Assembly (NCBI GenBank): GCA_003144275.1
Contig: NJBF01000002.1
Coordinates: forward strand, 60,001 to 92,000
Reading direction: 5' to 3'
DNA from: Candidatus Heimdallarchaeota archaeon B3_Heim
GTDB taxonomy: Archaea; Asgardarchaeota; Heimdallarchaeia; Hodarchaeales; Hodarchaeaceae
DNA: 32,000 nucleotides
This document shows positions 10,586 through 32,000 of the stretch, in pieces; within the stretch, counting starts at the first letter, position 1; each line of letters opens with the position of its first letter. A model generated the notes under the pieces. It was not told the origin of the DNA. It made no database searches and saw only the letters and a program-made list of their open reading frames with translations. Made by a program: the position numbers and the translations under genes.

Positions 10586-11496
10586 CGTATAGTCTCCAAG
10601 GGAGTTATGGATTTATGATGTAAAAAACCTATTCTGACAGAAACCCAATATCAGAATGCTTGGATATAAAATATTCAGAACAAAATCTAGAAAATAATGT
10701 GAATATCAGTTAAGAATATTGGAAAATAGGTAAAAGATTATTTGCAGGTAGATAAAAAAAGCCAGAGAATGGAGGAAAGAGTATATTCATATGGTAAGAA
10801 ATGAAAAATATTTCGTTCAATGAAATATTTTTCAAACCACCACCCCCACATTTCCGATGGAATATCTACGGCTAGCTATGCGAAAAGCGAAACCTGTCTA
10901 TTAAGCATTTTCCAACGACTAAAAATTATGGGAGTGGAAAAAAGGCCTGAGAGGTGTTATCTACCAAGTAGTACCCCGAAGAAGTGAAATTTCGTGAATT
11001 GTGTATATATAAAAAGAGGTACTATCATGATATGATGGTATATATAATATGGTAAGAAATAGAATATATATATATAGAATCGGGCTGGACAGGCAGCCAG
11101 AGCGGGTGTGGGAAAATGTCATAACATGCTCCTTTTCCTGTACCCTTTTAAGGGATCTTACCATATGTGTAATGTTCTATTTTCCACTCCATCTTACCAT
11201 ATCATTCCCCCTGATTATGCCATATCTAGCTCATCTGGTGATATTCTATCTTCTTCATCTTGAGTGCATAATTGGGGATCCAAGCGAGTAGAAGATGACC
11301 TCTCCCCTAAATTTGAACTTAGAAAAATTAAAAACCAATTTATAGGGACCTTTTATGATGACCTGGAGACAAAAAAATATTATTTTTCGTCCAGGCTTCT
11401 TTTTATTCCATCCAAGGTGTGATAAAATAGTCTATCAGAGTTGTTTCGTTAAATAACCCGAAATGATGAATATATTAATTAGACGTTAAAAAGAGT

Positions 11497-11814
11497 TTAT
11501 TCTGAGATGGTCCGATAAAATACCTTGGGTCTACCTTTTTTATTTACAGGGGGCGAATATTTTGTCACGACTTTCAAGACCATAAGTCTTGTTAAGGCAT
11601 CATAAATTGTCGTTCGAGCTATTCCTGTTTTATCGCACAGTTCCATCCGTGTTGCCGGTTGGTGTTCTTTTAATGCGGTAAACACTTTTAAGTCGGTTTG
11701 ATTTGTAAAACTAGAGATTATCCCTTGAGGATGACTTTCAGTTGTCATTTCCTCTTCTACTTCGATTACTAGCATTTCATCCATATATCGGCCCATTTCT
11801 CTTCGCCAGAACAT
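11497..11814 (-). CDS. Winged helix-turn-helix regulator (TrmB-like N-terminal domain)
   Basis: LKVFTALKEHQPATRMELCDKTGIARTTIYDALTRLMVLKVV...GRPKVFY is a wHTH with wing. The start may be a downstream Met. Confidence 0.85.
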   Translation of the reverse strand: MFWRREMGRYMDEMLVIEVEEEMTTESHPQGIISSFTNQTDLKVFTALKEHQPATRMELCDKTGIARTTIYDALTRLMVLKVVTKYSPPVNKKGRPKVFYRTISE

Positions 11815-11835
11815 TTTGAAACTGAATTGTTTAAT

Positions 11836-12051
11836 TTAGGTTGTCATGTTTTTTAAGATTTTCAGTATGAGGTCAATAAGATCTTTTGTATTCTTGAACA
11901 TCCTAGTGGTGAGATAAAGAATTTCATCCTTTGAACGGTTTTGACGGTACGAGACTCTTGGGAAAGTTCGTTTCACATATATTGGGAATAATTTTTTCGC
12001 TAAGATTTTTCCTTTCACAAATTTGTGCCTTTTTCCACGCATTTGTTTCAC
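11836..12051 (-). CDS. Small basic hypothetical protein
   Basis: 71-aa Lys/Arg-rich ORF directly upstream of, and co-oriented with, the wHTH gene. Confidence 0.5.
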   Translation of the reverse strand: MKQMRGKRHKFVKGKILAKKLFPIYVKRTFPRVSYRQNRSKDEILYLTTRMFKNTKDLIDLILKILKNMTT

Positions 12052-12628: not shown

Positions 12629-13111
12629 ATGCGTGAAACTGGTTCTAAAATAACTGCGAATAATGGTAAGATTACTGTTGCGTTTGATCGCAAGATACGT
12701 CTTGGACCGCTCCATACTTTAGTTGAAGGATATTTAGAATTATCTAGAAGTCAACAGAAGCAAATTGATGATCTTATCGAATCCTTGCTTATGCAAAACG
12801 AAACTCATGAAGAAACCATTTTTGATTCCTCTTCCTTACCCAAGGTAGTTTCGTTATCTGATCTTGACACCAAGAAAGAGCGCATTCTATCTATTGTCTC
12901 CAACCGTGCAAATCCAAATTTCCTTACTGCTCGTGAAATCCAGGAGCTTTATACCCATTATTTGAAAGAAGAGATTGGTATTTCAACGATCCAAACGAAT
13001 TTGAATCGTCTTGTTGATTCAGGTTTTGTAGAACGTCAAGAAGGTGTCAATCCTTTAGAATATCGTATTAATGGTAAAAAAGTTAATCAATTGCCGAAAA
13101 TTCTAATGTAA
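12629..13111 (+). CDS. Transcription regulator with C-terminal wHTH (BlaI/MarR-like fold)
   Basis: FLTAREIQELY...IGISTIQTNLNRLVDSGFVER...PLEYRIN. Confidence 0.82.
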   Translation: MRETGSKITANNGKITVAFDRKIRLGPLHTLVEGYLELSRSQQKQIDDLIESLLMQNETHEETIFDSSSLPKVVSLSDLDTKKERILSIVSNRANPNFLTAREIQELYTHYLKEEIGISTIQTNLNRLVDSGFVERQEGVNPLEYRINGKKVNQLPKILM

Positions 13112-13324
13112 TTTTCCTTTCTTCTCATATTTCAGTGAGAAGTGCTATTTCTGTTTTTTCTTGATTCATCCTTTAGAATTTTGTTTATTTTGCGGTTGTT
13201 TCTGTACTTCTGAATATTTTTTCCCGACGTAATGTCTACATATTATTTGGTGGATATTTAAGGAAGAGACAAGAAAACACCTCCTTAATACCGAGTATTA
13301 CTACTCATTCGTGGGAGGGTTATT

Positions 13325-15688
13325 TTGACCGAGGCTATAGACGATATGCCTTCTCCTCGGGAATTGGGAGAAATGATTGTTAATGGGTTATATAACCCAG
13401 AAACAAACAATATAGAGAGCTGTATAGATGAGTTACTCGCTTACATGCCTGAAAGTTTTCCTCGTAAAACAGCTGAGCTCCAGATTCAGGCCATAATATC
13501 CTATCGAAATAATAAATCCGAACCTAAGAAGAAGAAAAAGCGTAAAAGGAAAATTGGACTGAGGGAATTTCCTTCCAAGGAACCTACTGACGATGAGACC
13601 CGAAAAAGCGCTCTTCGTTTTGCTTTGAATTGGTTTGGAAGGAACGATCAGAGATATTTTGTCAGATTAATTAATGAGATTACTAATAATTTTCCTAAAG
13701 CAAATTATACTCAAGCGGAATCTCGTTGGATTGCTACTCAAGCTTTACATAAATACCAACGAGCTATCGACGCTATTCCTACTTTTAAGACTGCTCAAGA
13801 TCGCTTACAAGAAAAGAGGAGTTTTTTCTCGTTAAAGTCCGCTAGTACACCTCGGGTTATACCTGAAATCGGAAAAAGAATAGATTCTAGCGAAAGTAGA
13901 GACAAGATTGAGACTGATAGTCTCAAAAATCTCAAAAATGAGACTGAGTATAGACAAGATTCAACCTCCAAAGTGAGACTTTCTCGAGGAGGACATCCAA
14001 AGTATAGACAAGATTTACTCCCCAAGAAGAAAAAACTTGATCCTAAACATATTACTATATTAAAGAGATTATTGACGAATAATTATCCTTGTCTCTTCCG
14101 TGAAGAAACTGGTATATCTAAAGCTACCTTTTATCGAAAGCTCAAGCAGTTGGAGAAATGGGAGTTAATCCTCAAGGTCAATAATGGAACTCCAGCTCAA
14201 TATGAAATCAATCCCAGGTTGAAAAATTCGAGTCTCAAATTCCTGGTGGAGGGTATCCCGTCGAGTCTCATTTCTGGATCCACGAGCAAATCTTCCCCGA
14301 TTGCCGAAAAACCCAATTTTGTGCAAGATTCTGAGTCTCACTCTCAGTCTCATTTTTCGGAAATTTCCTCCAATGTACAAACCAATGGATCTAACTGTGA
14401 GACCCGATATGAGTCAACGAGCAAAACTGCCCCGATTGGAAAACCTGACGATCTGATCCAAAATGCTCATGATGCTCAGTCTCATTCTGAGTCTTACTCA
14501 GTCTCAATTCCTTCCGATTCTGAAAAACCACGAGAAAATTTTGAGACTACCCATGAAACCACGAGCAAAAAACCGTCTTTTGAGGAATTGATTGCTAAAT
14601 TTGATCCTCATCACATTCGCAGCCATGATTATCTATATCTCTGTAAAATTCAAAGGCATTCCAAAGATTTTTTCCAACAGCTAGAAAAAACCAACTGGTT
14701 AGAATCCAAGGAGGGAATGAGGAACTGGAAATGGTATAGAGGGTCCTTGAAACTCCATAATATTGAATGTCATTTTCATATTTACACTAAAAAAGTCACT
14801 ATTCAAATTTTAGAAGTAACCAGTCCAGATCCATTCAGTAATAATGCCATTGCTGACGATTTAGCGGTCCAAGTGACTGCATTTCTGGAGGATAAATATC
14901 CTGGGTTAGCGTTGTATGACCTGAAACGTCGTTCTCGCTTAGAAATCAAGAAAACCCATCACGCAATCCCCAACCATCCCATAGCAATTCGAGCGTTTGA
15001 ACTTCAATACAATTCTCATGGAGAACGCTTTGGTATTGATAATTCGGACGACAAGAAAGAACTCGAATCTCACGCCCCAAAGTATTCGACAGAGGATATT
15101 GATAATTACGTTGAAGACTGCGATTTTAAAGCCAAAAACGAGTATTGGTTCCGAGACTCAGCAAAGGACATTGTTCGCAATGGAAAAACTATAGACAAGA
15201 CAGTCGAGGTTCTGAATAAAGTTGACGAAAATCAACTTAAAACTGCTGAATGTCTCAAAGAAAATTCTGAGAATAGTCATCAATTAGCTGCTGGACTTAG
15301 ATCTCATAGCGAACTTATTGACTCCATGTCCAAACGGGAAGATGAACTTATAAGACGAAATTTTTCTTTACAGCAGACCGTCTTCACTTTAGAATCTCGG
15401 ATTACTGAAATTGTTAATTCTGGACCACATTTCACTCGAGATCCTGGAAAAGCACGGGTGAGTAGAGACAAGATTGAAGTTGTTCTCCCAAGACTTCAAG
15501 CTCTCATTTTGAGATCGATCCAGGATCATCCTGGACAAACCCGAAAGGACCTAGCGAAAAATTGCCAAGTCTCTCCAGGTTCCGTCAATGGGACGATTCC
15601 TCGGTTAAAGCGGAAGGGATTCATTTACGAGCATCAATCTAAACTGTTTTTCAAAAATAAACCACATAGAGGAAAAAAATATGTATGA
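13325..15688 (+). CDS. Multi-wHTH protein, probable replication initiator
   Basis: Internal wHTH (FREETGISKATFYRKLKQLEKWELI) and C-terminal wHTH (ILRSIQDHPGQTRKDLAKNCQVSPGSVNGTIPRLKRKGFI). Also an N-terminal helical unit resembling PriCT-1, a Ser-rich repetitive linker and a coiled coil. The function is inferred. Confidence 0.6.
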   Translation: MTEAIDDMPSPRELGEMIVNGLYNPETNNIESCIDELLAYMPESFPRKTAELQIQAIISYRNNKSEPKKKKKRKRKIGLREFPSKEPTDDETRKSALRFALNWFGRNDQRYFVRLINEITNNFPKANYTQAESRWIATQALHKYQRAIDAIPTFKTAQDRLQEKRSFFSLKSASTPRVIPEIGKRIDSSESRDKIETDSLKNLKNETEYRQDSTSKVRLSRGGHPKYRQDLLPKKKKLDPKHITILKRLLTNNYPCLFREETGISKATFYRKLKQLEKWELILKVNNGTPAQYEINPRLKNSSLKFLVEGIPSSLISGSTSKSSPIAEKPNFVQDSESHSQSHFSEISSNVQTNGSNCETRYESTSKTAPIGKPDDLIQNAHDAQSHSESYSVSIPSDSEKPRENFETTHETTSKKPSFEELIAKFDPHHIRSHDYLYLCKIQRHSKDFFQQLEKTNWLESKEGMRNWKWYRGSLKLHNIECHFHIYTKKVTIQILEVTSPDPFSNNAIADDLAVQVTAFLEDKYPGLALYDLKRRSRLEIKKTHHAIPNHPIAIRAFELQYNSHGERFGIDNSDDKKELESHAPKYSTEDIDNYVEDCDFKAKNEYWFRDSAKDIVRNGKTIDKTVEVLNKVDENQLKTAECLKENSENSHQLAAGLRSHSELIDSMSKREDELIRRNFSLQQTVFTLESRITEIVNSGPHFTRDPGKARVSRDKIEVVLPRLQALILRSIQDHPGQTRKDLAKNCQVSPGSVNGTIPRLKRKGFIYEHQSKLFFKNKPHRGKKYV
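13895..14570. repeat. Iteron-like array inside the Rep-like gene (candidate replication origin)
   Basis: Eleven exact AGTCTCA/TGAGACT heptamers, three 15-bp AGTA(G/T)AGACAAGATT repeats (13895, 13947, 14001), two hairpins, and three ACGAGCAAA repeats spaced 135 and 144 bp apart. Confidence 0.75.
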
Positions 15689-16172
15689 AACCAAACCCCA
15701 AAATTTAGCTCTCTATCTGCCTACCACTGGAGCAATTGGAACCCTTTTTCTCTACACTATTGGGTATTCAATTCGTTCGTTTAAGACAGTGGTTAATATG
15801 TTATTGAAACACGAAATCGAGAAAGTCATCGATATTCGTTTCTCTCGCTACAGTCGGAATTCCGATTTTAACGGACAAGACCAGAACCTAGCGATGAAAT
15901 TCCTTGGCTATGGAATCGACTACGAACATAGACGAGAATTCGGGAATCCTAATTCTCTTTGGAAGCTTTTCAAAGACAATCGAAGAGCTTGGCGCTTAAA
16001 ATTCTTTTCCCACTTTACGACAGGCGAACTCCTTCTCTATCAAAGTCTCTTTACTCGTCAGAAAACGGTCCTAATGTGCTCTGAGAAAAAAATTCGTCAT
16101 TGTCATCGCTTAGAAGTTGCGAATTGGCTTTCTCAAGGTGCTAATCCTGAGATCCGGGTGATTCATCTATGA
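15681..16172 (+). CDS. DUF488 family protein
   Basis: YTIGYS, VIDIR...YS and LMCSE...CHR motifs typical of DUF488; overlaps the upstream stop. Confidence 0.88.
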   Translation: MYETKPQNLALYLPTTGAIGTLFLYTIGYSIRSFKTVVNMLLKHEIEKVIDIRFSRYSRNSDFNGQDQNLAMKFLGYGIDYEHRREFGNPNSLWKLFKDNRRAWRLKFFSHFTTGELLLYQSLFTRQKTVLMCSEKKIRHCHRLEVANWLSQGANPEIRVIHL

Positions 16173-16669
16173 AAAATAAAAGATTGAAAGCGTTGATTGG
16201 CTTTCTACTGATCCTTTTGGTGATCGAACTCCTCTGTTTTGCCTATGAAGGTAATGAACTTCTGAAAACCAATTATCTCATTGAGATCGAATCAGAAATC
16301 CTTGACGACCCTCCATTAGCAAATTTCTTCTTCACGAATGTAACAATTCTAGTTCATACTGATGATGAGATAATTTTTGAAGTATTAGCAGACAGGTTTA
16401 GTGATTTCTTTAGCATTAAATATTGGACTGTAGATGTAGAATTCGAATTCACTGAATTTAAAGGATCGCTTACATTTAATATCAGTATTATTAGTTACCA
16501 ATCGGGACATTTCTATCTAACCTATAACCACACCCGTATTCCTTTCCTAATAAGCTGGACTGTAGGTGTTTTTCTTGATTCAGTATGTCAATCTATAGAT
16601 TTTGGAACACTCATTGAGACGAAGACTCTAGCGAAAATCTATGGAGTTCCTCAATTCTTTATTAAGTAA
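16169..16669 (+). CDS. Membrane-anchored hypothetical protein
   Basis: Basic N-terminus followed by hydrophobic helix LIGFLLILLVIELLCFAY; ATGA overlap with DUF488. Confidence 0.78.
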   Translation: MKNKRLKALIGFLLILLVIELLCFAYEGNELLKTNYLIEIESEILDDPPLANFFFTNVTILVHTDDEIIFEVLADRFSDFFSIKYWTVDVEFEFTEFKGSLTFNISIISYQSGHFYLTYNHTRIPFLISWTVGVFLDSVCQSIDFGTLIETKTLAKIYGVPQFFIK

Positions 16670-16681
16670 AGGGGTGATGCT

Positions 16682-17146
16682 ATGACAATCGATCCATCCT
16701 ACCAAGAACAACTTGACATTCAGAAATATGCGGACCAACGGCGACAGGAGATCCATGATTTTCTAGCGAGACACAAGACACGACTTATGACGTTGACTGA
16801 AGTGAGTAAGGCCTTTGAATCCCAAGATCCTTATTATCACGGCAGAATCTTTGCTGTGTTGGATCCTCAAGTGGTCGCTAGTCTTTCTTACAATCCGATT
16901 CGACAGGTCCACTCCACCAGTAAAATTACCAACAATAGGAAACAATGGTTTATTGATTATTGGGAAAAGAAGTATGAGATTGATATTTCCCCCGACTCCG
17001 TAGATTTTGACGAATGGACTTATCAGGTCTGTCTCGTCTTCGAGAACTACTCTTATTACAACGGCGACTACTACATTTCTGTCTATGATTATCCTAGCTG
17101 TTTAATTGCCACATTTCTTTTAGCCAAGGAGGGAAACGATAGGTGA
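16682..17146 (+). CDS. Hypothetical protein
   Basis: 154-aa ORF preceded by an RBS-like GGGGTGA; no family recognised. Confidence 0.8.
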   Translation: MTIDPSYQEQLDIQKYADQRRQEIHDFLARHKTRLMTLTEVSKAFESQDPYYHGRIFAVLDPQVVASLSYNPIRQVHSTSKITNNRKQWFIDYWEKKYEIDISPDSVDFDEWTYQVCLVFENYSYYNGDYYISVYDYPSCLIATFLLAKEGNDR

Positions 17147-17270
17147 GCCTTTCTCCATTTAAGAAAATTCCTGCAAACGTTGATGCAACATTAAAATTTT
17201 TTGCATTGATTAGATCAAAAAAGTTTCAGATCATCCTTTTTTTTTTCATCCATATTTTCCACTAAATACT

Positions 17271-17306
17271 AAGACAAGACAAGATAAAAAAGACAAGACA
17301 ACAAGA
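17271..17306 (+). repeat. Tandem AAGAC pentamer tract upstream of a TATA-like element
   Basis: AAGACAAGACAAGATAAAAAAGACAAGACAACAAGA followed by TTTATATTAATT. Confidence 0.7.
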
Positions 17307-17368
17307 ATATTTATATTAATTAATAATAAAATTCTTTTTTTATTTCTTTAGAACGTGAGGCAATAGAC

Positions 17369-17488
17369 ATGATTTTAACTCTACTTAGACAATTATTTGG
17401 ATTTTCTATTGACAAATTACCTAAAGAACAGCAATTAGCATTAATTAAAGAGATTGTAAAAGACTGCAAAGAATATTTAGAAACATGA
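17369..17488 (+). CDS. Small hypothetical protein, 39 aa (MILTLLRQLFGFSIDKLPKEQQLALIKEIVKDCKEYLET)
   Basis: Below the ORF-track cutoff; GTGAGG RBS-like sequence and an upstream TATA-like element; amphipathic helical pattern. Confidence 0.55.
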   Translation: MILTLLRQLFGFSIDKLPKEQQLALIKEIVKDCKEYLET

Positions 17489-17607
17489 TCTTTTTATTGA
17501 GATTTGATATTTCGAGTATTTAAATTAGGGAAGGAATAGATATTGAATATATCTAAAAGGAGAGAATATTTTTTAAACTTCAAAGTTAATGACTAATAGG
17601 ATGTAGG

Positions 17608-17802
17608 ATGTCCGATCAGGTAAAATTTCTACTTCGAATATTACTCTTAGGTTTTATTCTCATTGTTACTATTGTGAGTATAGTTATGCCAGAAACTTCC
17701 CAAATAACAATTATAAGGGGTGCCTCAATGCTATTACTCATATTAGGGGGAATCTACACGATAATCAATTATAATAAAAGATTTTCATTTGCGCCCGAGT
17801 AA
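17608..17802 (+). CDS. Small two-TM membrane protein
   Basis: Two hydrophobic stretches (FLLRILLLGFILIVTIVSIVM; GASMLLLILGGIYTII); AGGA upstream. Confidence 0.75.
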   Translation: MSDQVKFLLRILLLGFILIVTIVSIVMPETSQITIIRGASMLLLILGGIYTIINYNKRFSFAPE

Positions 17803-17806
17803 CCTA

Positions 17807-17989
17807 ATGAATCAATTCTCATTCGATCTAGATGACTCTAATGTGATCACATTTCAGTAGTATGAACTGAAAAGACTGGAAACGAGTTATTGTAGACATT
17901 ATCAAGAGGAAATTTCCAATTGTCCGATTAAATGTCCTTATTTCTCAAATAAAACCGATACTACCACAGTGATTCTGGTTGAAGAATAA
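17807..17989 (+). pseudogene. Small Cys-containing ORF interrupted by an in-frame TAG
   Basis: MNQFSFDLDDSNVITFQ-TAG(17858-17860)-YELKRLETSYCRHYQEEISNCPIKCPYFSNKTDTTTVILVEE; starts 4 nt after the previous stop. Confidence 0.35.
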
Positions 17990-18616: not shown

Positions 18617-18619
18617 AAT

Positions 18620-18739: not shown

Positions 18740-18841
18740 GGGAAAGTCAGTTCCTCATAATCCAGATCTATGATTATATCCAAGCTGCCTCATTGCGACG
18801 TTCCTTTTAGTGAAAGGCGAGCTCTCTTGAGTCATAAATGA

Positions 18842-22800: not shown

Positions 22801-25030
22801 TGTTGTAGTTACTGCATCGGATGGATCTGGTTCTGATATATATGCAGTCTCATTTTCTGCTTGGGATGATGAGGTCTTATGGGATGATACAACGGATCCT
22901 TATTCAAGACAATACTCAACGGACTCTACAGAATCAGTTGGTTCAATAAATATTTATGCTAAGGATAATGTTGGTAATGCTGATGCATCAGCAGTCACTA
23001 TAACGATGACGGAAGATCTAGTAGACCCAACTTTAACTGATGCTATGTCTGGATATTCTGAAGGAGGAGATGTTGATGAGATATTTGGAGTAATAGCAGA
23101 CAACGAGGCATTCTTCTCTGATTCTTTTGACACTGACGGAACGATGACTTTTACTGCCACTGGGACAGACGGAGGAGCAGGAGTAAGAGGAATAGATTTT
23201 GGGAGTTTTGGAGCGGACAATCCTGCTGAAGACACAGAATCACCTTACACTGGTCTTTATACGATCAATGATGATGACAGCACAGGATCAATTACTGTTG
23301 TAATTTATGATAATGTGGGAAATGATGCTAGTGGTTCTATTACGATGACGGAAGATGCAGTAGCACCAACAGTTACTATAACATGGAATTTTAACGATAA
23401 CGATTGGGCTATCATGTCTGGATCGGACTATGGCTGGACTAATATCGACTACACTGTTGTTCAAGATACCGCAAGTGGGCTACAAACAGTTTATCTAAAT
23501 AGTTATGACCATTCTGCTAGTGCTTGGAAAACTGCTAGAACAATTGCTTCAGGACTAAATGGTGATACCTCGTCTAAATCTTATTTAGATCAATATAGAT
23601 ATCATACGGATACTGGTGAAACGACAGGAACATACGTCGATGACGAATATGATAATACACAAGATAAATATTATGCTTTTGCAGATGATATGGTCGGAAA
23701 TAGAGGAGGAACAGAACAATATATTAGATTGGATCGGACAGCTCCCACTGGACACTCAGTTGTTATGGAATCAGGAACTTTTTATGCAGATATAACTAAT
23801 GATAACACTCCATTATTGACTGGATCCGATGCTAGTGATTCAGGATCTGGTTTATCTGCTACTCCTTACTACTTTGCTTGGAGAGTGAATGGAGGAGGGT
23901 GGTCTAATTCAGGTTATCAAGCTGGTAACACTTGGAGTCCAACAGTTACTGTTTCATCTATAGATTACGATTTTACCCTTCAAATTCAGGATGTGGTAGG
24001 AAACACAGGAGTTTATGCTAATGATTATGAAAATACTGTAGACCTAATAGACCCTGCTTTTACCAATATTGGAGGCTCTGAATCTTCTGGTTATCTCTAT
24101 GCAGTTGGAGCAACTATAGATAATGGTTATTACTCAGATAATATGGGAGCTACTCCTACAAACTTTTTAGTGATCGGTGATGTGACTGATAATTTTGGTC
24201 TAGAAAAGGCAAATGGGTCGTTAGCTTTTAGTGATACTCCTGATGATACTAGCATTACTGGCACTTCTGATAGTTTTAGTCTTACTTATACAATAACAAG
24301 TGGGTATTCTGGTGCCAAGGTAGTTACTCTAACTCTTTATGATCAGGCAGGAAATTCAGTACAAGCCACCTATACTTTCTATGAGGACAACATACCACCA
24401 GAATCTAATGTCATTTATACTAATGAATTATATAATTCTGGGATTCCAATAACCGTATCCAATCTAGCCACTGATTCTGGAAGTGGTATAAGAACCACGG
24501 ATGGGTACGAATGGTGGGTAAACCAAACAAGAATATATGGAACACAATTTACAACAAGTAATTATTACACTTGGAATATCTACAACTTAACGAATTTAGT
24601 ATTTTATGGTGCTGTTTATGATAACGTAATGAATTTTAGTAATGCTACTACTAAAACAGTAATTTATATTTTTATTTTGATTATAACATCTCCACAACCA
24701 GAGATCGAAGAAATAGAGACGACCGAATACTATAATGACGAAGATGTCTACTTGGATGATACCACCACAATATATAAGATAATTAACGTGGATTATAACG
24801 ATTTTACATCTGTAGAAGAATATGATCTAGAACTAGAAGAGAATATTATTATGAACGAAGAAATTAACGTAACAGAAAAACCAGATGAGATAAAAACAGT
24901 TGGAGTAATCAAAGTAGAAAAAATAGAATCGATTACGAACATTAGATATACAATTGGGACTATTTGCTACTTTGTTATGGTTTCTATCAATATTATGTAT
25001 AACAGTAACAAGAAAAGAAGGAGAAGATGA
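19895..25030 (+). CDS. Giant acidic surface protein/adhesin with Ig-like repeats, 1711 aa
   Basis: N-terminal signal/TM, Asp/Thr/Gly/Tyr-rich beta composition, recurring D-x-x-x-P boundaries (EDLVDPT, EDAVAPT, LDRTAPT, DLIDPAF, EDNIPPE), C-terminal TM followed by KKRRRR. Confidence 0.88.
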   Translation: MTPVRTKMRKKVIPPLVLSIITFSFLGMMVQKSIDSNEVSVRDPIFVEVSPLRGENQTYSRHTNYNNKYYYDKIEQNTQVAGFGSSIIDSKVSSDITVDSEGNDTRIWIVDPTGQIDGYYIDINSSYQELNASRGQTYQHYYNTSSNEYSVYSSSLVNKTGIIDNTDWVTAEEYPTQFIIRLTDGSIITSSNLTQISNYLSSLDNTTIWAVGIEGIAGVMAFYLNFADFDWGHGQYLYYPRLLNGQLPNFNQPLYAIYPHLFAKLTGTWYDKILNDRSLYQGVVDPRNTLHTSITDDTFELYYTTYGITIMGRIWDFKHGFKFNLTDQLFHQITEFRCRNQDFEDVGMGYEITSSPQSDGTPYQPDHFLLSNETDELSIGIAQAWQAGIYLEDFYSRIEIISENNETMVFTFSDMEDAGFTQKYLELHDQLMPDGSTRKTLLAGMYGFGAYSVNTIIEIDPVTGTKYSTDDSDLYIDGSTWRNVDNFIFNGYYNDADEMRSFIAFNTGITTVVLTTSDEVIQWRFGLETMEATEAVWAKAYNIRGNYDSNTAKESSNSYSDTAYYGPNRQIWLDGDDASGYSIWRNDDSIIDDWMDNREAADNYISIRMWPIGADPGENDRIGVYDQSFAGNAYAPKMSFTYTVPNTSPVCTIDAYPSGDQYAGIAFSATMTGTDADGQADLNIFYMVFGDTAGGTNSFRLYYDSDNFVDDTQFTALITVNTASPYKYSATGIPNSITNGWQVVWTLVVKFGYAYYDDGGAGYNLMDVWALVSDDSAASSSWKDEQSAADIEDDLEAVSLTVSYPDAYEYGGTASQIDDSDWFAGGHTATASGSIEYEGFSQTFDSDYDAGDGQTVQLWFNAGDLGDVYDDADIDAGAYSIAFTPTAGTDYTDDTIDADCDWDVTIQGSTGSDVTAAGIAIESSRDNEYPDTTFSSITENAPHTYIYYPGSGQTVYFSDLMGATDQLFTVVVTASDGSGSDIYAVSFSAWDDEVLWDDTTDPYSRQYSTDSTESVGSINIYAKDNVGNADASAVTITMTEDLVDPTLTDAMSGYSEGGDVDEIFGVIADNEAFFSDSFDTDGTMTFTATGTDGGAGVRGIDFGSFGADNPAEDTESPYTGLYTINDDDSTGSITVVIYDNVGNDASGSITMTEDAVAPTVTITWNFNDNDWAIMSGSDYGWTNIDYTVVQDTASGLQTVYLNSYDHSASAWKTARTIASGLNGDTSSKSYLDQYRYHTDTGETTGTYVDDEYDNTQDKYYAFADDMVGNRGGTEQYIRLDRTAPTGHSVVMESGTFYADITNDNTPLLTGSDASDSGSGLSATPYYFAWRVNGGGWSNSGYQAGNTWSPTVTVSSIDYDFTLQIQDVVGNTGVYANDYENTVDLIDPAFTNIGGSESSGYLYAVGATIDNGYYSDNMGATPTNFLVIGDVTDNFGLEKANGSLAFSDTPDDTSITGTSDSFSLTYTITSGYSGAKVVTLTLYDQAGNSVQATYTFYEDNIPPESNVIYTNELYNSGIPITVSNLATDSGSGIRTTDGYEWWVNQTRIYGTQFTTSNYYTWNIYNLTNLVFYGAVYDNVMNFSNATTKTVIYIFILIITSPQPEIEEIETTEYYNDEDVYLDDTTTIYKIINVDYNDFTSVEEYDLELEENIIMNEEINVTEKPDEIKTVGVIKVEKIESITNIRYTIGTICYFVMVSINIMYNSNKKRRRR

Positions 25031-28000
25031 TAATGAAGTTAAGTAAGACATTCGCTCTAATGCTATCATTAATCGTTATATTTTCATTTTTGAACAGCTT
25101 TAATTTACTTGAAAATGAAAATATTGTTGAAACAACAACTATAGACAAATTGACAGCAGAAGAAAACACTAACTCCGATTTAAACACAGAAACACCAGAA
25201 ATAAATAACTTTGAGAATAATTTTTTAGAGGAAAATGATCCAATTTCTGCCTCTGTTCAAGAAGTGGCTTGGAAGACTGCAGAGACAATAAAGACTGATC
25301 ACTACTTTAATAACCAAACTCCAGAAATCTTGAGTGTTTGGGCTGGTTATTCAGAAGATACATATAAAGATTCGGAACTTATATGGGAAACAGAAGTTGA
25401 TGATGTTAATTGGGATGAAATATTTAAACTAGATATAGATAATAGGTCCATATTTTGGGATAATAGTCTTACATTTATACGTCAGAATGATACCTATGCG
25501 TATAATATGTCCATGCTAGCAAGTAACTTACCACTTGGGTCAGTACCACTTCCGAGCAGAGCTACATTCTTTGAATTTAACCTTAGAGTGTTAGCACGGC
25601 ACGCAGGAACTTTCTATGTAAATACTTTCTATACGACAACAGACGAAGATGGTACTGCGCCAGCAGAATACGTAGAAATTTACTCAGACATTGCCTTCCC
25701 AGTTGATGAAAATTATATGGATGCTGAAGGGTATCTATATTACCGTTACCAAGTAAAAACTGTAGGTGTAAACACTGCAGGTTATGGGTTTACTGGTGTA
25801 AATATAACGAATAAGGTATTCAACGTCAATTCACAACTCTATGAGACAATAGACATTGATACAATTGGATTAGTTGAAGAAGCATGGTTGACAGATCGTA
25901 TAGAAATAGTAGGATTACAATATACTGTTTTCGTCCCTGACGTTGTAGAATCATATCCAAGAGCTGAGAGACTACAAACTAGCTCCGAAACCTACAATTT
26001 GAAATTAAAAGTAGATAGTTTTGACTATGGTACTCAAATTAAGATATACACTCCTACCAGCATTGCTGGCGAGTTTTATGAGTATGTTATTGATCCAGTA
26101 CCCTCTAGTTTCGGATATGATGCTTCTAACAATCTTTGGATTAACAATACCGTTCCTACAATATATCAAATCACGTTTCAGATAACAACAGAGAATAATT
26201 ATTATGCTGTTTACGAAACAACACCTCGGTATTTATATGATCCGAATTTTGAAGGCACGTGGCAATACGATTGGGCAAATACGTCAAGTGATGAATGGAC
26301 TGTTGATTTAACGTCAAGTATCATTTTTGATGGTTCACTTGCTCTCAATTTAACTTCTGACAACGATATAAGCACCTACTGCTCACTCGACTCCTATGTC
26401 TATCCTGCGGAATATACATTCACCTTCGCCTACTACAGGACAACTAGCAGTCCTATCTATTTCTATTGGTGGGAGAACGATGGTTGGCAATACGAAGTAC
26501 TAGAAACAATTACAGACAGGTGGATTAAACATATAGAACGATATAATATCACTGGTGATACTGGTGGCTACAATATTGCCTTTGTTACCTCATCTACCAA
26601 TCAAGAAATCTTTATAGATGATTTTAAGACTTGGGAAGCAAATGGTCAGGTCAGAACTACTGGTTATGCCAATAATCTCATGGAGACTGGTATGTTCGCT
26701 ACTATTCGTAATATTGATTTATACAATAATCCTGCCGTACCATACCATCCAGTAAATATTAAACTACGAGACAGATCATCAGATTCAACCATGCTTTCAT
26801 ACAATACTATTACAGATGCTAATGGTCGAATACACGTCTCGTTCACACTACCATCCTCTAATCAAATGGAAGAAATGGAGTACACATACAGAATCACTTC
26901 ATTAATCACCAATGAATATACTGATTCACATTTCACTCCTATACAAGTAGAGTATTACGACTACTTCATGACAGAGAATTATACCAATTTTGGTATCGGA
27001 GGCATTGATTTTACCGAGAACTGGGATGACGGAGCCACCTACACCAATGCTAATGATAATCAAACACTAGGAGTAAATATGATTAGTCCTATGGGTACGG
27101 TTACCGATTTTAGAATTAAATTTCATGACCTAGATGACATTGATGCCGATTATTACGAATTTGTTAGTATAAGATTGAGGACAAATGTCAGCGATTTGTC
27201 AGTATCTCTCTATAACCAAACTGATCAATATATTGGTACTTTAACGAATTTACCATTAAGCACTGGTGAATTAGATTGGGTTACGGTTACGTGGAATCTT
27301 ACTGAGGTTTCCTCTTGGTTTGGAATACAGGGAGGATTTGAACTCAGATTTGATGAAGTCGGAGGTGACGGTCAACCAGAAGCGGATAATTTCGTTTGGA
27401 CAGACCAAATTCGTCTTTATTATATTGATGAACCTTTACTCATTGATACTGCCACATACGGGTATTTGAGTACTGTGTATAACCAATTTGTGTATTATGT
27501 AGTGATTGACGGCACCGCTCAACAATATGTGTTTGATTTAGATCCATTTTTATACGATTTAACAGTAGATAGTCATGAAATAACCATTATTCCATTCCTC
27601 GATTTAAGCAGGAGACATTTATGTTATATTCACGGTGAAACCATAACCTTAGAGTATGATGTGGCCGAACCAGGACTCATGAAAATTATCTACCATGACC
27701 AAAGTGGGTATATTCTTGATTTTGATATGTTTAAGACCTATATTGATGATGTTCGACTGTATGAGCAGTATGTCTATTTCCTAAATACATCCATGGTCTT
27801 TAATTTGACGGTAACTGATATCTTTGATAATATCGTTTACCAGAATACTACTGCGACCTTTGAATACTTCAGGGAGATCCAAATTACTCTGTATTCCATA
27901 AAAATTCAAAACCAACAGGAATATCCAATCTGGATTCAGTTGAAACGAGGCACTAAGACCTTTTCTGAGGCTGTATTCCCATTTGAAATTGTAGAATTCC

Positions 28001-30372
28001 GTTTAGAGACGGATACCTATGATGTGCGTGTTAATTATACTACTGTAAATGCAAACAAGGAAGTTGTCTACAATGGCACCTACGTTACCTACCAATATAC
28101 GGTCACCAAGGATACTGCCATTTTTATCACTGGAACCAGTATTCAGGATGTGTTCAACAACGTAGTGCAGGTAGCACAAGATATAGATAATGTGAACGCC
28201 TCATTATCCTCTCAAATAATCGATGTAGATATCCATATCAGCAACGTAAATACCAGCATTACTGATCAAGTGGTAAGTGTTGAAATATATCTCGATAACG
28301 TAAATACCACCATAGGAAGTCAACTGGTAAGTTTAAGTAGTGAAATTAGTAATTTACAAACAAATGTTACTTTACAATTTGTAGATATTAATAGCACCAT
28401 ACTCAATGTCAATAGTTCAATCTTTGCCCAGACTGTATCAATATTATCTGATTTGGATAATGTAAATAGCACTATTTATGCTCAAACACTTACACTCCTC
28501 TCAGATATTTCCAACACCAACTCTACACTCTATACTCAGACTGTCACTATTTTGAGCGATATAACCAACATGAACAGTACCATTTACTCGCAAACAGTCA
28601 CCATCTTGTCCAATATACAAAATATGAATTCCACTATTTATGATCAGACAGTAAACATAATTAGTAATATCGAAAATATCAATTCTACTCTATACACCCA
28701 AACAGTTACAATCCTCTCCCAGTTGACCAATAATATGTCAACCATTTATAGCCAAACTGTTTCTATCCTTTCTGACATATCCAACACTAATTCAACAATA
28801 TATGCACAAACTATCTCTATAATTTCGCAATTAACGAACAATATGACTACTATTTACGATCAAACACTGTCCATCATATCAAACGTTTCCAATACCAATA
28901 GCACTATATATTCGCAAACATTAACCATTCTTTCGCAATTGACAAACAATATGTCCACTATCTATACCCAGACCGTTACAATCTTATCAGACATATACAA
29001 TATGAATACAACTTTGTATAGTCAAACAGTGACTGTACTCTCAGATATTCAAAATATCAACTCTACTCTCTATACACAAACCATCTCAATTCTATCTAAT
29101 ATAGAGAATGTGAATTCGACCATTTTTAATCAGACAGTAACTATCTTAAGTAACATTTCGAACGTGAATTCTACGATTTATACTCAAACACTAAGCATTT
29201 TATCAACTATTCAGAATACCAATTCTACTCTCTATAGTCAAACAGTTTCGATCCTGTCTGATATTTCTAATATGAATTCCACGATTTACACTCAAACGAT
29301 TAGTATTCTGTCAGATATTCAAAACATAAATTCCACGATTTACACTCAAACAATCGAAATTCTCTCGGAAATCCAGAATACCAATACCACCATCTTTAAT
29401 CAAACAATTGAGATTCTTAGTAACATCGAGAATACCAATACCACGCTCTTTAATCAAAACATTCAGATTCTATCCGAATTACAAAATGTCAATTCGACTA
29501 TCTATCATGCCACTTTAGAGATCATTACTCTCATTGGTGAAATGTATGGCATTTTTCGCGTTCATTTCTCCATTATCGATTCTCTCGGGATTGGATTACC
29601 CTGGGAAACTGTTTTACTTATGGTGAATAATTCTCGACACTTCGATCAAGAACTTTATATTTCTAATAATACATTCTTGCAATTAGCGGCTTTTGATTGG
29701 TTTAATATTCAGCTCTGGGAGGAGAATTATACCATTAGAGAACGAACTGAGGTCAATATTACCATTAAGTTGTACTTACTCATTCTCAAAAATAATGGGA
29801 ATTATACTGCTTATGTCAAGATTTATCGCGCTGGGCAGTTAGGGTTGAATGTCACTGTATCGCCAGGGAATTCAATCGGGGTTAGAATGACGGAAGAAGT
29901 CTATTCGTATAAAGTCTATTATTTCAAAGCAGAACATCAAAACGTGACCACTCGTGCGGATGAAGCGAGCGAGATCACGAATTGGGGCAAGACCCTCTAT
30001 AATGTAGGGAGTTTTCGAGTTAGTGCTCAGTTACCGCGTGTCTTAGATGTCTCAACTCCAACACTTACCCCTCCCGCGTTAGAAGGCTGGGCGAAATTCT
30101 GGGATGGATTTCTGTCAGGCATGACGATTGCGGCGATAGGAGCGGCTATTGCTTCGTTCTTTGTTTTTACGTTTCTGAAAGAAAGTTGGTATGGAACCAA
30201 AGCGGTTGTTTTGGATAAAGCCGCGGATGATTCTCTCTTTAAACCCCAAAGTTTGGAAAGACATGAGGATAGGTTGCAATCGCGATACTATCGCAACCAA
30301 CAAAGTTACCAGAAAAAACGCACTTGGTTACAGAAAATTAAACGAATATTAGGATTTACTGATCATGAATAA
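25027..30372 (+). CDS. Giant surface spike/stalk protein with 25 x 18-aa repeats, 1781 aa
   Basis: Signal peptide, beta-sandwich-like regions (YDPNFEG...EIFIDDFK resembles CBM4/9), repeat stalk, C-terminal TM (FLSGMTIAAIGAAIASFFVFTFL) and basic cytoplasmic tail. Confidence 0.9.
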   Translation: MIMKLSKTFALMLSLIVIFSFLNSFNLLENENIVETTTIDKLTAEENTNSDLNTETPEINNFENNFLEENDPISASVQEVAWKTAETIKTDHYFNNQTPEILSVWAGYSEDTYKDSELIWETEVDDVNWDEIFKLDIDNRSIFWDNSLTFIRQNDTYAYNMSMLASNLPLGSVPLPSRATFFEFNLRVLARHAGTFYVNTFYTTTDEDGTAPAEYVEIYSDIAFPVDENYMDAEGYLYYRYQVKTVGVNTAGYGFTGVNITNKVFNVNSQLYETIDIDTIGLVEEAWLTDRIEIVGLQYTVFVPDVVESYPRAERLQTSSETYNLKLKVDSFDYGTQIKIYTPTSIAGEFYEYVIDPVPSSFGYDASNNLWINNTVPTIYQITFQITTENNYYAVYETTPRYLYDPNFEGTWQYDWANTSSDEWTVDLTSSIIFDGSLALNLTSDNDISTYCSLDSYVYPAEYTFTFAYYRTTSSPIYFYWWENDGWQYEVLETITDRWIKHIERYNITGDTGGYNIAFVTSSTNQEIFIDDFKTWEANGQVRTTGYANNLMETGMFATIRNIDLYNNPAVPYHPVNIKLRDRSSDSTMLSYNTITDANGRIHVSFTLPSSNQMEEMEYTYRITSLITNEYTDSHFTPIQVEYYDYFMTENYTNFGIGGIDFTENWDDGATYTNANDNQTLGVNMISPMGTVTDFRIKFHDLDDIDADYYEFVSIRLRTNVSDLSVSLYNQTDQYIGTLTNLPLSTGELDWVTVTWNLTEVSSWFGIQGGFELRFDEVGGDGQPEADNFVWTDQIRLYYIDEPLLIDTATYGYLSTVYNQFVYYVVIDGTAQQYVFDLDPFLYDLTVDSHEITIIPFLDLSRRHLCYIHGETITLEYDVAEPGLMKIIYHDQSGYILDFDMFKTYIDDVRLYEQYVYFLNTSMVFNLTVTDIFDNIVYQNTTATFEYFREIQITLYSIKIQNQQEYPIWIQLKRGTKTFSEAVFPFEIVEFRLETDTYDVRVNYTTVNANKEVVYNGTYVTYQYTVTKDTAIFITGTSIQDVFNNVVQVAQDIDNVNASLSSQIIDVDIHISNVNTSITDQVVSVEIYLDNVNTTIGSQLVSLSSEISNLQTNVTLQFVDINSTILNVNSSIFAQTVSILSDLDNVNSTIYAQTLTLLSDISNTNSTLYTQTVTILSDITNMNSTIYSQTVTILSNIQNMNSTIYDQTVNIISNIENINSTLYTQTVTILSQLTNNMSTIYSQTVSILSDISNTNSTIYAQTISIISQLTNNMTTIYDQTLSIISNVSNTNSTIYSQTLTILSQLTNNMSTIYTQTVTILSDIYNMNTTLYSQTVTVLSDIQNINSTLYTQTISILSNIENVNSTIFNQTVTILSNISNVNSTIYTQTLSILSTIQNTNSTLYSQTVSILSDISNMNSTIYTQTISILSDIQNINSTIYTQTIEILSEIQNTNTTIFNQTIEILSNIENTNTTLFNQNIQILSELQNVNSTIYHATLEIITLIGEMYGIFRVHFSIIDSLGIGLPWETVLLMVNNSRHFDQELYISNNTFLQLAAFDWFNIQLWEENYTIRERTEVNITIKLYLLILKNNGNYTAYVKIYRAGQLGLNVTVSPGNSIGVRMTEEVYSYKVYYFKAEHQNVTTRADEASEITNWGKTLYNVGSFRVSAQLPRVLDVSTPTLTPPALEGWAKFWDGFLSGMTIAAIGAAIASFFVFTFLKESWYGTKAVVLDKAADDSLFKPQSLERHEDRLQSRYYRNQQSYQKKRTWLQKIKRILGFTDHE
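28189..29538 (+). repeat. Coding tandem repeat, 25 units of 54 nt; consensus N-x-N-S-T-I-Y-x-Q-T-[VIL]-x-I-L-S-x-I-x
   Basis: Units counted by hand from NVNASLSSQIIDVDIHIS to NVNSTIYHATLEIITLIG, all exactly 18 aa. Confidence 0.95.
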
Positions 30373-30592
30373 AGAGAATTTCACTTCTGCTGGGGCGCTT
30401 ACCAGCGCTATTATTGGCTCTACCCTCTTAGGAGTGTTTTTGGGGTCCCGCTCTGGTGGGATTTATGAATTCGAGATTGGGAACAATTTGCTAACCCTGC
30501 TTCAGCTGGTTTCAATGATATTCGCTTTAGCGTTCTGTGGTTATTTTTGGCTGGAAAACAAGAAAATATCAAAAGAGATGAAAACAAAATGA
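30365..30592 (+). CDS. Small two-TM protein, 75 aa
   Basis: Hydrophobic helices ALTSAIIGSTLLGVFLG and LLTLLQLVSMIFALAFCGYFWL, basic tail; overlaps both neighbours. Confidence 0.85.
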   Translation: MNKENFTSAGALTSAIIGSTLLGVFLGSRSGGIYEFEIGNNLLTLLQLVSMIFALAFCGYFWLENKKISKEMKTK

Positions 30593-32000
30593 TGCAACAA
30601 GAACTATTTACGGACTTAGAGACCTTTTATTATTCTCTTATTGCCATGATCCAGGAAAATGCGGTTCCGTTGATCATTGGATTCGCATTTCTCTGTTATT
30701 TTGGGGCCAATCAATGGCGGAAATCACGTGATTCGCAGCTCAGAAATGTGCGTGAGCATTGGAAAGCGATTACCTCCAAAGCAACAAAGATTTCCTCAGC
30801 ATTTAAAGGCAGGATTGGACTCGTTGAAACGGCTGGCACCATGGAGCTGGAAGGTGATATCTATCTAATTGATTCCGTGACGAATGATGAGTTAATCGAT
30901 TCTGAACGGGTGACAGCGTTACGATTAGAGCTTACACAAGAACAAATTCTCCCCAATCTAGCTGAGAATGAAATTTGTTTTGAGAAATATGAGTTTCGTG
31001 CGCGAAAAGAAAACAAGGACGGCCTTCGGATTGACATCACTAAGGGATCCCTCCAAGAACAACTACAACTACGCTTTAAGGATGAGAAGGAGGAGAAATT
31101 CCGTAAACCTGGTAATTGGGAGTTGAAGGATCGCTGGATTGTCAAAAAATTCACCCGCGTGTTGCCGACCAAAAATGATACGTATGTGTCATTAAGAAAG
31201 ACTCCAAAAGGAGGAGAAATAATTGCATTTCGGCGGCAGGGGATTCAGGAACATGAAACAATTCTCTCTGAAGCGACTCCTCTACCATTAATCGATCTCG
31301 ATCCGAATGTCACCAAGGGGCATCTTCAATTAGCTATGTTTGGATTAATCATCTATGAATTCCTGTTGATGTATACTATTTTTGCGGAACTGGATCCTAC
31401 TTTTCTGCTAGATCGAGCCACCATCCCTTGGTATTTTGTACTAGTGGTCGCGTTTGTAGGAAAATATTGGGTAGACAAAACAAAAATAGCTTATTTTGCG
31501 TATTACCGTGCGTATAGTGGTGCAGAAGAGACCTTCAAGTTGCGTGGTGTCGCAGGCGAGATTTCAACCTACACCACCAAGGTATTTGAAATTGAGTTAC
31601 ATGCCCACCCCGCCATCCCCCTAGCGAATTTACTGAAGTTTAACCCTGAAGATATCAAAGATGAGCGAATATCAGGGTTAGAACAGCGTGTCACCAATCT
31701 TAGTGCCAAGCTTGCCTCTGCCAAGTCGAAACATGATCAGTTATTATCAATTTTACAACATAAGGATCAACAATTAGATCAGTCACGAGAAAAGCATATC
31801 GAAGCATTTGATGATGGAGCCATTTTCGCGTTAACTACTTACCGAGTCAAACAACTAGAGGATGATGGAAAAACTCCGCAAGAATACGTGCAAAAACAAC
31901 AAGGGACTGATACTCTCACGTGGTTCAAAGAAATTAAACCCTTGCTTTTTCTCATTGTCATCGGGGTAGGGGCATTTTTTCTGATTACTAACTTTCTCCA
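30589..32000 (+). CDS. Multi-pass membrane protein with coiled coil (>470 aa, runs off the window; absent from the ORF track)
   Basis: Hand translation is open from ATG 30589 to the window end: MMQQELFTDLETFYYSLIAMIQENAVPLIIGFAFLCYFG... with about four hydrophobic segments and the coiled coil LEQRVTNLSAKLASAKSKHDQLLSILQHKDQQL. Confidence 0.9.
   Translation, partial: MMQQELFTDLETFYYSLIAMIQENAVPLIIGFAFLCYFGANQWRKSRDSQLRNVREHWKAITSKATKISSAFKGRIGLVETAGTMELEGDIYLIDSVTNDELIDSERVTALRLELTQEQILPNLAENEICFEKYEFRARKENKDGLRIDITKGSLQEQLQLRFKDEKEEKFRKPGNWELKDRWIVKKFTRVLPTKNDTYVSLRKTPKGGEIIAFRRQGIQEHETILSEATPLPLIDLDPNVTKGHLQLAMFGLIIYEFLLMYTIFAELDPTFLLDRATIPWYFVLVVAFVGKYWVDKTKIAYFAYYRAYSGAEETFKLRGVAGEISTYTTKVFEIELHAHPAIPLANLLKFNPEDIKDERISGLEQRVTNLSAKLASAKSKHDQLLSILQHKDQQLDQSREKHIEAFDDGAIFALTTYRVKQLEDDGKTPQEYVQKQQGTDTLTWFKEIKPLLFLIVIGVGAFFLITNFL

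Follow-up and report, generated by a model that had tools for sequence, protein, structure and literature searches.

A 59-kb integrated mobile element distantly related to HeimV1 in a Hodarchaeales archaeon

What kind of genetic entity carries a tightly packed run of genes whose products are mostly membrane and surface proteins? The question is raised by a 32,000-nucleotide stretch of a Heimdall-group Asgard genome (Candidatus Heimdallarchaeota archaeon B3_Heim, order Hodarchaeales; contig NJBF01000002.1, positions 60,001 to 92,000, our G000:C80:60001-92000), hereafter the window, from a metagenome-assembled genome (MAG) of 3.95 Mb in 103 contigs that is 94% complete. A first-pass annotation, made from the sequence of the window alone, had proposed that an integrated element starts at 11300 and is either a provirus of a new enveloped virus group or a mobile element encoding a DNA-transfer apparatus. 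We find that positions 13,245-72,316, counted from the start of the window and continued past its right end, are a 59-kb integrated mobile element of this archaeon. Our best explanation of it as a whole, to which we give a probability of about 60%, is an integrated element of the HeimV1 family whose operon would serve the morphogenesis and egress of a non-lytic virus.

Borders of the element and its kinship with HeimV1

The borders were read from relatives in which the site is empty. The comparison set was 22 species behaving as one genus, namely this MAG and 21 others found as its closest relatives by genome search. When the relatives' contigs were compared with contig C80 by BLAST, window position 13244 was joined directly to 72312 in the sister species G063, which is 88-90% identical to the host stretch left of the element as far as 13244. 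This empty site holds a single copy of the 12-bp sequence TGTCTACATATT between the same two host flanks, in the order host-left, core, host-right. From the window start to the contig end the core occurs exactly twice: at 13233-13244 (+ strand), on the left edge of the element (attL), and at 72317-72328 (L022:4317-4328), on its right edge (attR). Because of the empty site in G063 and the core flanking both sides, we place the element at 13,245 to 72,316, a length of ~59.07 kb that extends 40 kb beyond the right end of the window; the start proposed at 11300 thus moves rightward to attL. The two flanks also lie close together in G060, G061 and G066, as seen in a DNA search of the genus and by contig BLAST. 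Extended to 16 bp, the att repeat has one mismatch between its copies. Just inside attR lies a tyrosine integrase gene (341 aa; L022:3238-4263, window 71.2-72.3 kb; PF00589, E 1e-29), and so two of the features for which the first-pass annotation had advised looking downstream, an integrase and attR, are present. The integration target is intergenic, with its 12-bp core and no tRNA at either end. A search for att sites by direct repeats, from the tRNA-Leu region to the contig end, gave only chance 14-16-mers, and the true sites came from the empty-site comparison.

The integrase, the att sites, a P-loop ATPase gene described below and the lack of synteny with the host lineage all bear out the proposal of an integrated mobile element of an Asgard archaeon. 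As to synteny, which the first-pass annotation had named as a check, neither the ATPase nor the larger of two giant proteins (giant protein 2) was found in any of the 21 other genomes of the genus. This absence argues for recent gain of the element.

The element has a described relative in HeimV1 (Wu et al., 2022, PMC8813620), an integrative putative virus of 30 kb from Ca. Heimdallarchaeum endolithica PR6. One distant match to the element fell at the very start of the single-contig genome G016; the published Ca. Heimdallarchaeum endolithica genome had been rotated to end at the HeimV1 integration site (PMC8813620). Since both HeimV1 polymerase chain reaction primers given in that study match G016:C1 exactly, at 927-954 and 29,323-29,351, we identify G016:C1:1 to ~30.3 kb as HeimV1. 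Six genes are common to the two elements and collinear: those for a giant protein (1781 versus 1822 aa; E 2e-92, 26% identity over 1505 aa), the ATPase (E 4e-15), an anchored protein of 508 or 524 aa (E 4e-5), ParB (in HeimV1 an 809-aa protein; E 1e-18), a methylase (E 3e-21) and the integrase (E 7e-7). In addition, a chain of weak matches links a 175-aa protein of the element to a 156-aa HeimV1 protein in the equivalent position. In both elements one end carries a tyrosine integrase; both also have ParB-like and N6/N4 methylase genes and a tightly polycistronic operon with a giant gene, a multi-transmembrane protein of ~520 aa, small proteins and homologous P-loop ATPases.

The two differ in size (59 kb versus 30 kb, with ~6 of the ~75 genes of our element detectably shared), in target (an intergenic 12-bp core versus tRNA-Gly) and in their giant genes, of which our element has two in tandem, whereas HeimV1 has one, preceded by two 500-aa anchored paralogs. 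Moreover, the ATPase of our element carries a C-terminal PD-(D/E)xK nuclease, which the 653-aa HeimV1 ATPase lacks, and the element has a different initiator-like gene and a large cargo of defense and basic-protein genes. HeimV1 itself excises, circularizes, replicates bidirectionally and is targeted by CRISPR (clustered regularly interspaced short palindromic repeats), and related proviruses in Gerd- and Hodarchaeota MAGs were mentioned in the same work (Wu et al., 2022, PMC8813620); we found no later paper analyzing HeimV1 in the literature searched. The shared, collinear genes mark our element as a distant member of the HeimV1 family, and we consider its description as an integrated HeimV1-like mobile element very probable. 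It is therefore not new in kind, as the first-pass annotation had supposed, but a new and much larger member of a published, barely characterized family.

A conserved operon of giant, membrane and ATPase genes

A co-directional operon starts at 19360. In the open reading frame (ORF) map its genes overlap by 4, 4, 4, 8 and 46 nt in succession, and the last two, at 32141-32668 and 32686-34554, follow gaps of 25 and 17 nt. The description of an operon in which every gene overlaps the next therefore holds from 19360 to 32115 and fails for these two. Similarly, the claim that all products after the first have transmembrane (TM) helices stands for 19581-32115 and falls for the last two proteins, of 175 and 622 aa. 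The first gene (19360-19584, +) encodes a soluble 74-aa protein with neither a TM helix nor a Pfam or PHROG match. It had been called ribbon-helix-helix (RHH)-like, yet it has no Pfam RHH match; the RHH gene is its neighbor on the opposite strand (19123-19272, 49 aa; Pfam CcdA PF07362, E 1.7e-5, 25.5 bits with a cut-off of 22.4), which, being divergent from the operon, is by position a candidate operon repressor.

The second gene (19581-19898, +) encodes a 105-aa protein with 2-3 TM helices by hydropathy, whose sole family match, to 8xMP, is weak and below the cut-off; we regard it as a candidate internal membrane or structural protein. Two giant surface proteins of type-I layout follow, each of more than 1700 aa, as the first-pass annotation had noted. 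Giant protein 1 (1711 aa; 19895-25030, +) has an isoelectric point of 4.1, repeated immunoglobulin-like modules, an N-terminal anchor by hydropathy and a hydrophobic C-terminus seen in the translation. Toward its C-terminus it is homologous to the first ORF of L004, a contig of the Logan collection from a different sample (E 1e-39). Across window 20360-24400 its repeats show 65-76% nucleotide identity to repeats that occur in multiple copies in same-genus genomes such as G075:C193 and G066:C1:4.188 Mb, a likeness that hints at adhesin domains having been swapped between host and element.

Giant protein 2 (1781 aa; 25027-30372, +), the homolog of the HeimV1 'tail fibre' and the hallmark protein of the family, is laid out as follows: a signal peptide, an ectodomain, a stalk, a membrane-proximal domain, a TM helix at residues 1699-1717 and a short basic tail. 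Its 56 N-x-S/T sequons amount to 3.14 per 100 aa, compared with 0.72 genome-wide. Residues 1051-1500 (28177-29526, +) consist of 25 tandem 18-residue repeats, in register and nearly all with N-x-S/T. These repeats would form a helical stalk of ~67 nm, and the whole protein may be a long glycosylated spike.

Three membrane or helical proteins and the ATPase complete the operon. A 75-aa protein (30365-30592, +) shows, by hydropathy, the arrangement TM-loop-TM-basic tail; its single PHROG match (E 0.009) has no annotated function. A 522-aa protein with ~5 TM helices (30547-32115, ending at L002:2115, +; likely true start 30589) is 87% identical to a 513-aa protein of L004 and related to a 427-aa protein of L005, and a multi-TM protein of 480-540 aa occupies the equivalent position in HeimV1, G054 and L035. 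It had no usable match in the ESM Atlas, where its model had a predicted local distance difference test score (pLDDT) of 0.39. Next come the 175-aa helical protein, which has no TM helix (32141-32668, L002:2141-2668, +), and the 622-aa ATPase-nuclease, also free of TM helices (32686-34554, L002:2686-4554, +). With a pLDDT of 41, the AlphaFold model of the 175-aa protein was unusable for assessing the idea of an Adnaviria-type helical capsid.

The operon recurs elsewhere. L004 has the same six genes, identically ordered, at 87-90% identity, or 65% for giant protein 2. The ratio of nonsynonymous to synonymous substitution rates (dN/dS) between the two copies is 0.07-0.11, with giant protein 2 evolving fastest, which indicates strong purifying selection on the core operon; such values against an 87%-identical copy from an unrelated sample argue that the module is functional and circulating. 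Close homologs of the ATPase number only 4 among 5.8 billion proteins. Among other Asgard genomes the ATPase was found in 6 of 399 with the protein as query and in 17 of 399 with a profile, and giant protein 2 in 6 of 82 other Heimdallarchaeia genomes. We compared the module in this element, L004, HeimV1, G023:C67, G054:C184, G227:C1, G324:C119, G314:C27 and G141:C265. The order of giant anchored protein, membrane proteins and ATPase is kept in every ATPase locus with enough flanking DNA: upstream of the ATPase stand a protein of 976-2533 aa that has a C-terminal TM helix besides a signal or anchor, followed by small proteins with two TM helices, multi-TM proteins and one or two small soluble proteins. 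Judged by these comparisons, the module of giant, membrane and ATPase genes is patchily distributed across Asgard lineages, in loci that look mobile.

One of these loci, of the Loki type, lies on a 998-kb contig of another Asgard family (G227:C1:463.4-472.2 kb; L037/L038) and consists of genes for a 71-aa 2-TM protein, a 976-aa anchored protein, five small proteins and an ATPase, to which our ATPase profile matches at E 2e-30. In wyrdviruses the morphogenetic module comprises a His1-like capsid protein of ~80 aa with two TM helices, then an adhesin, five conserved genes and, lacking TM helices, a pI-like AAA+ ATPase (Medvedeva et al., 10.1101/2021.07.29.453957). Because its gene order and gene count equal those of this published module, the G227 locus is probably an integrated provirus of the wyrdvirus type.

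The C-terminal nuclease motif of the 622-aa ATPase reads GHLVED...PDL...EVK. A profile of the ATPase domain retrieved 843 cluster representatives (50% identity) at E <= 0.001 among 1.84 billion proteins, mostly of 500-650 aa, which have no Pfam domain in common and in which the C-terminal PD...(S/E)xK motif is nearly invariant. Among the members examined (proteins P0008-P0155), one has an intein and a few have C2H2 zinc fingers. A metagenome scan for relatives added two short contigs and no more, and a sequence search of the PDB with the ATPase gave no match. Its AlphaFold model (pLDDT 72) has an N-terminal domain of the ASCE/RecA type. When the model was compared with viral models, the named neighbors in the top region were Inoviridae Zot, ATV ORF286 and an APBV1 protein. 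In the ESM Atlas the nearest clusters were 67-100% viral, several with Pfam Zot, and one nearby cluster was labeled 'DnaA-like replication initiation protein', the GenBank label of SSV1 B251 and His1 ORF16; the Zot-bearing and 'DnaA-like' viral clusters gave TM-scores of 0.53-0.60 by the matched model. The modeled fold is thus a structural lead, lying nearest to that of Zot/pI-like viral ATPases.

Virus, plasmid or island

The architecture of the operon resembles that of pleomorphic and spindle-shaped archaeal viruses, the groups to which the first-pass annotation had likened it, and the ATPase fold agrees with that likeness. Like wyrdviruses and spindle viruses such as His1, SSV1 and NMV3, the element encodes a small 2-TM protein, a large anchored adhesin, small and membrane proteins and a soluble ATPase; it shares with spindle viruses an integrase and a temperate habit, and its egress, too, would be non-lytic. 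The 75-aa protein equals the His1 capsid protein VP21 in size and in its layout of TM-loop-TM-basic tail, without sequence similarity to it. Spindle virions have been imaged on a Heimdall-group culture, and a His1-like capsid protein and such an ATPase are reported for them (10.64898/2026.08.12.739948). Unlike these viruses, the element has a genome ~4x larger, adhesins ~2x the length of the 792-aa SSV1 end-filament protein and an ATPase fused to a nuclease. In HRPV-1 (Pleolipoviridae) the layout is alike as well, with a replication gene, VP3, the type-I spike VP4, ORF5-7 and the P-loop NTPase VP8, and in that family no capsid gene is expected. The likeness to Pleolipoviridae is one of layout alone: VP3 and VP8 are not similar in sequence to proteins of the element, no PHROG match reveals VP3-, VP4- or VP8-like core proteins, and the element has a genome 8x larger and spikes 3x longer.

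Taking the element as integrated, we would tentatively read the operon as the morphogenesis and egress module of a temperate, non-lytic virus, a reading that in our view falls a little short of even odds. Under it, the host membrane would receive small hydrophobic proteins and giant spikes that are glycosylated; the replicated circular genome would be processed by the Zot/pI-like ATPase, with its PD-(D/E)xK nuclease, and driven by it into a particle, membrane-derived or built of hydrophobic proteins, which would exit without lysis. The divergent RHH gene and a winged helix-turn-helix (wHTH) protein with iterons in its gene would control the switch and replication, and ParB, the methylase and a HEC-01-like gene pair would provide maintenance and defense.

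A number of results weigh against this viral reading. The main gap is that no capsid, nucleocapsid or known virion protein was recognized. With Pfam and PHROGs, none of the proteins scanned across the 59 kb matched a terminase, portal, HK97, jelly-roll, tail or lysis family, as the first-pass annotation had reported for the part of the element inside the window, although several small ORFs were unscanned and no structure-based capsid search was made. At 59 kb the element is far above the known genome sizes of spindle and pleomorphic viruses, and its ParB, DUF3560, methylase and defense cargo is equally typical of plasmids. By BLAST and phmmer, the small TM proteins of 75 and 105 aa show no similarity to His1 VP21, SSV1 VP3 or HRPV-1 VP3, nor do they match an annotated PHROG. 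Sequence profiles score His1 ORF16 at 29 bits and B251 at 17 bits, compared with up to 30 bits for the host's own AAA+ proteins, and hhalign likewise gives similar probabilities for His1 ORF16, SSV1 B251 and host AAA+ proteins. Because sequence profiles do not discriminate, 'Zot/pI/B251-like' describes a structural lead, not membership. M13 pI and HRPV-1 VP8 did not match the ATPase family, VP8 giving E 0.44 with the family hidden Markov model and a probability of 15% with hhalign. Scans of IMG/VR with the ATPase, its alignment and the G227 ATPase gave no relative, and tblastn of GenBank phages with both ATPases and the 75-aa protein gave nothing meaningful. HeimV1, finally, was called viral on 'tail fibre' predictions by PhANNs and on homologs in viral databases, not on hallmark genes (PMC8813620).

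A k-mer scan of this MAG found no CRISPR array, and a class-wide DNA search gave two 27-28-nt matches (E ~4e-4 to 9e-4) that we treat as chance. In two public marine-sediment sequencing runs, the only runs listed and each with a small share, contigs cover the host flank and a 124-bp dispersed repeat but not the element, and hence say nothing on excision; no RNA run was listed.

The same gaps lend weight to the strongest rival, an integrative plasmid or an element resembling integrative and conjugative elements (ICEs), in which no virions are made, adhesins and membrane proteins establish cell contact, and the ATPase-nuclease would nick or process DNA and pump it into a recipient. The ParB-DUF488, DUF3560, methylase, HEC-01-like, PIN and radical-SAM-like genes are typical cargo of plasmids and islands, a length of 59 kb fits a plasmid, the initiator-like gene bears iterons, and virion proteins went unrecognized. 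Similar orphan Asgard elements have been described as 'perhaps more likely plasmids' (Medvedeva et al., 10.1101/2021.07.29.453957). Yet none of the element's scanned proteins has a Pfam match to a VirB4/TrbE, TraG/VirD4, relaxase or HerA/FtsK family. Where the first-pass annotation had suggested looking downstream for an FtsK/HerA/VirB4-type ATPase, a P-loop ATPase was found. The structural neighbors of the modeled ATPase are mostly viral clusters, several with Zot, and the operon layout copies that of virus morphogenesis modules. Furthermore, archaea are not known to have a conjugation system built in this way. On balance we think this explanation unlikely, though it deserves serious weight.

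A decaying or domesticated island, integrated once and now immobile, with surface proteins that serve the host as adhesins or in an S-layer-like role, is improbable. It would fit the single mismatch in the 16-bp att repeat, the repeat modules that giant protein 1 has in common with same-genus genomes and the lack of read evidence for an excised circle, the public runs not covering the element. However, no long ORF is broken, neither those of 1711, 1781 and 1008 aa nor that of the integrase, dN/dS is 0.07-0.11 against the 87%-identical module from an unrelated sample, and the element is missing from all 21 other species of the genus. Lastly, giant surface proteins are numerous in Asgard genomes (Wu et al., 2022, PMC8813620), but an ordinary host cell-surface or S-layer locus is already refuted by the precise empty site in the sister species, the direct repeats with an integrase and the genus-wide absence of the genes.

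The integrated HeimV1-family element that we favor may also be compared with aloposons and HeimV2, which are likewise integrated in Heimdall-group archaea and have giant genes in tandem (Wu et al., 2022). Aloposons have tandem giants of 3,000-6,000 aa, with MinD/ParA upstream and tRNA integration downstream, whereas the giants here measure 1711 and 1781 aa, no ParA/MinD family occurs upstream of them and no tRNA stands at either end of the element. Separately, the locus G050:C129:1536-25588 (L031/L032) has tandem giant ORFs of 2412 and ~5600 aa that have one domain in common with giant protein 2 (E 8e-8) and recall, by their sizes, the aloposon pair 'Otus and Ephialtes' (Wu et al., 2022).

Further genes, flanking DNA and biological meaning

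Between attL and the operon lie regulatory and accessory genes. The first encodes a putative replication initiator or regulator of 787 aa (13325-15688, +) with two wHTH domains, at about residues 240-300 and, of the MarR type, at the C-terminus (721-771; Pfam MarR/HTH_24, E 6e-9). The 7-bp iteron TGAGACT/AGTCTCA occurs 11 times inside this gene (13909-14548) compared with 3 times in the other 31 kb of the window. The protein has only 3 homologs among 5.8 billion proteins, and a sequence search of the PDB gave no match; its domains and iterons make it a likely initiator. Next to it is a DUF488 gene (163 aa; 15681-16172, +; Pfam PF04343, E 4e-13). Other DUF488 genes lie just past the HeimV1 integrase in G016 and after a Rep-like gene on the integrase-bearing Logan contig L047 (25.1 kb). 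In L047 a 908-aa protein has a short match to the 787-aa protein, and further genes encode a methylase, PCNA, DUF488, HNH and a DUF87 ATPase of the HerA/VirB4 type; this content suggests that one module, made up of the initiator-like gene and DUF488, moves among different Asgard elements.

Small accessory genes follow in the ORF list (166, 154, 64, 150 and 117 aa; 16169-19195), some with TM helices and one with a zinc ribbon; the only Pfam matches of the block are weak ones to zinc ribbons, and none of the genes is shared with HeimV1 or L004. An intergenic gap in this block holds the 124-bp dispersed repeat (17360-17483), which is 88% identical to G000:C93:13370-13493, has partial copies in G068, G063 and marine-sediment contigs, and matches no Rfam family; it may be an element resembling miniature inverted-repeat transposable elements or a small RNA. 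Rfam gave no family match over the whole 79 kb searched.

To the right of the operon, beyond the window, a HEC-01-like defense pair (window 35899-37723, L002:5899-7723, -) consists of an ABC-type ATPase and a 186-aa partner. The ATPase matches AAA_21/AAA_15 at E 3e-49, and the pair matches HEC-01, a candidate defense system of PADLOC, as well as PARIS AriA models. On its right follow a PIN_8 protein, the 508-aa anchored protein related to the 524-aa HeimV1 protein, a run of basic, N-terminally anchored proteins, a DUF3560 protein, a ParB-DUF488 fusion (L003:4250-5488; ParB_N, HTH_ParB and DUF488) and a 1008-aa acidic surface protein (-). A radical-SAM-like gene lies between the last of these and the N6/N4 methylase gene (L003:18600-19367), and an ASCH gene between the 1008-aa protein and the integrase, after which comes attR.

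Left of attL, the 11.5-13.1 kb part of what had been taken for the element's regulatory block consists of host genes that are syntenic across the genus. Pfam identifies a TrmB-type wHTH gene (11497-11814, -) and a gene for a 160-aa wHTH protein (12629-13111, +), with a 71-aa ORF (11836-12051, -) between them, all outside the element. The two wHTH genes follow a GDPD gene in the same order in several species of the genus (G058, G066 and others), and by these conserved positions they are host DNA. Between the GDPD and TrmB-type genes, at window 8562-10585, lie PhzF and SNAP-like genes that occupy this place only here and in the nearest relatives (G063, partly G060); elsewhere in the genus the matches to PhzF-like sequence lie on different contigs or far off, a distribution that points to a local rearrangement beside the integration site. 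Farther left, a 1.8-kb insertion (3634-5429) stands directly 3' of tRNA-Leu(CAG) (3512-3598) and contains a single 526-aa ORF (3694-5274, minus strand; GC 0.31) without a Pfam match. G063, G061 and G062 lack it, 3633 being joined there to 5430 with a short overlap, and parts of it occur in G071, G060 and G058; it has the look of a separate small mobile element that targets a tRNA.

Among known archaea the Hodarchaeales are the nearest relatives of eukaryotes, and almost nothing is known of their mobile elements. The locus described here supplies base-pair borders, an empty-site control and a full gene map for an element of the HeimV1 type, and it shows the neighborhood of the HeimV1 'tail fibre' to be a conserved module of giant glycoprotein, membrane proteins and ATPase. 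The ATPase-nuclease family, large and without a common Pfam domain, could serve as a search handle for further such elements. A broader and rather doubtful possibility is that HeimV1-like elements, proviruses of the wyrdvirus type and hundreds of unannotated metagenomic contigs belong to a single large assemblage, as yet undescribed, of non-lytic Asgard and archaeal viruses, united by the ATPase family (at least 843 clusters, most with PD-(D/E)xK) and the giant-spike module. If so, the 59-kb element would be by far the largest genome of an archaeal virus that is capsid-less or has a hydrophobic capsid, and the lineage of archaea nearest to eukaryotes would have glycosylated spikes with ~67-nm stalks. 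Should the module build particles, it would represent a membrane-based lineage of Asgard viruses with very long glycosylated spikes, and would bear on membrane remodeling and virus-host exchange before eukaryotes.

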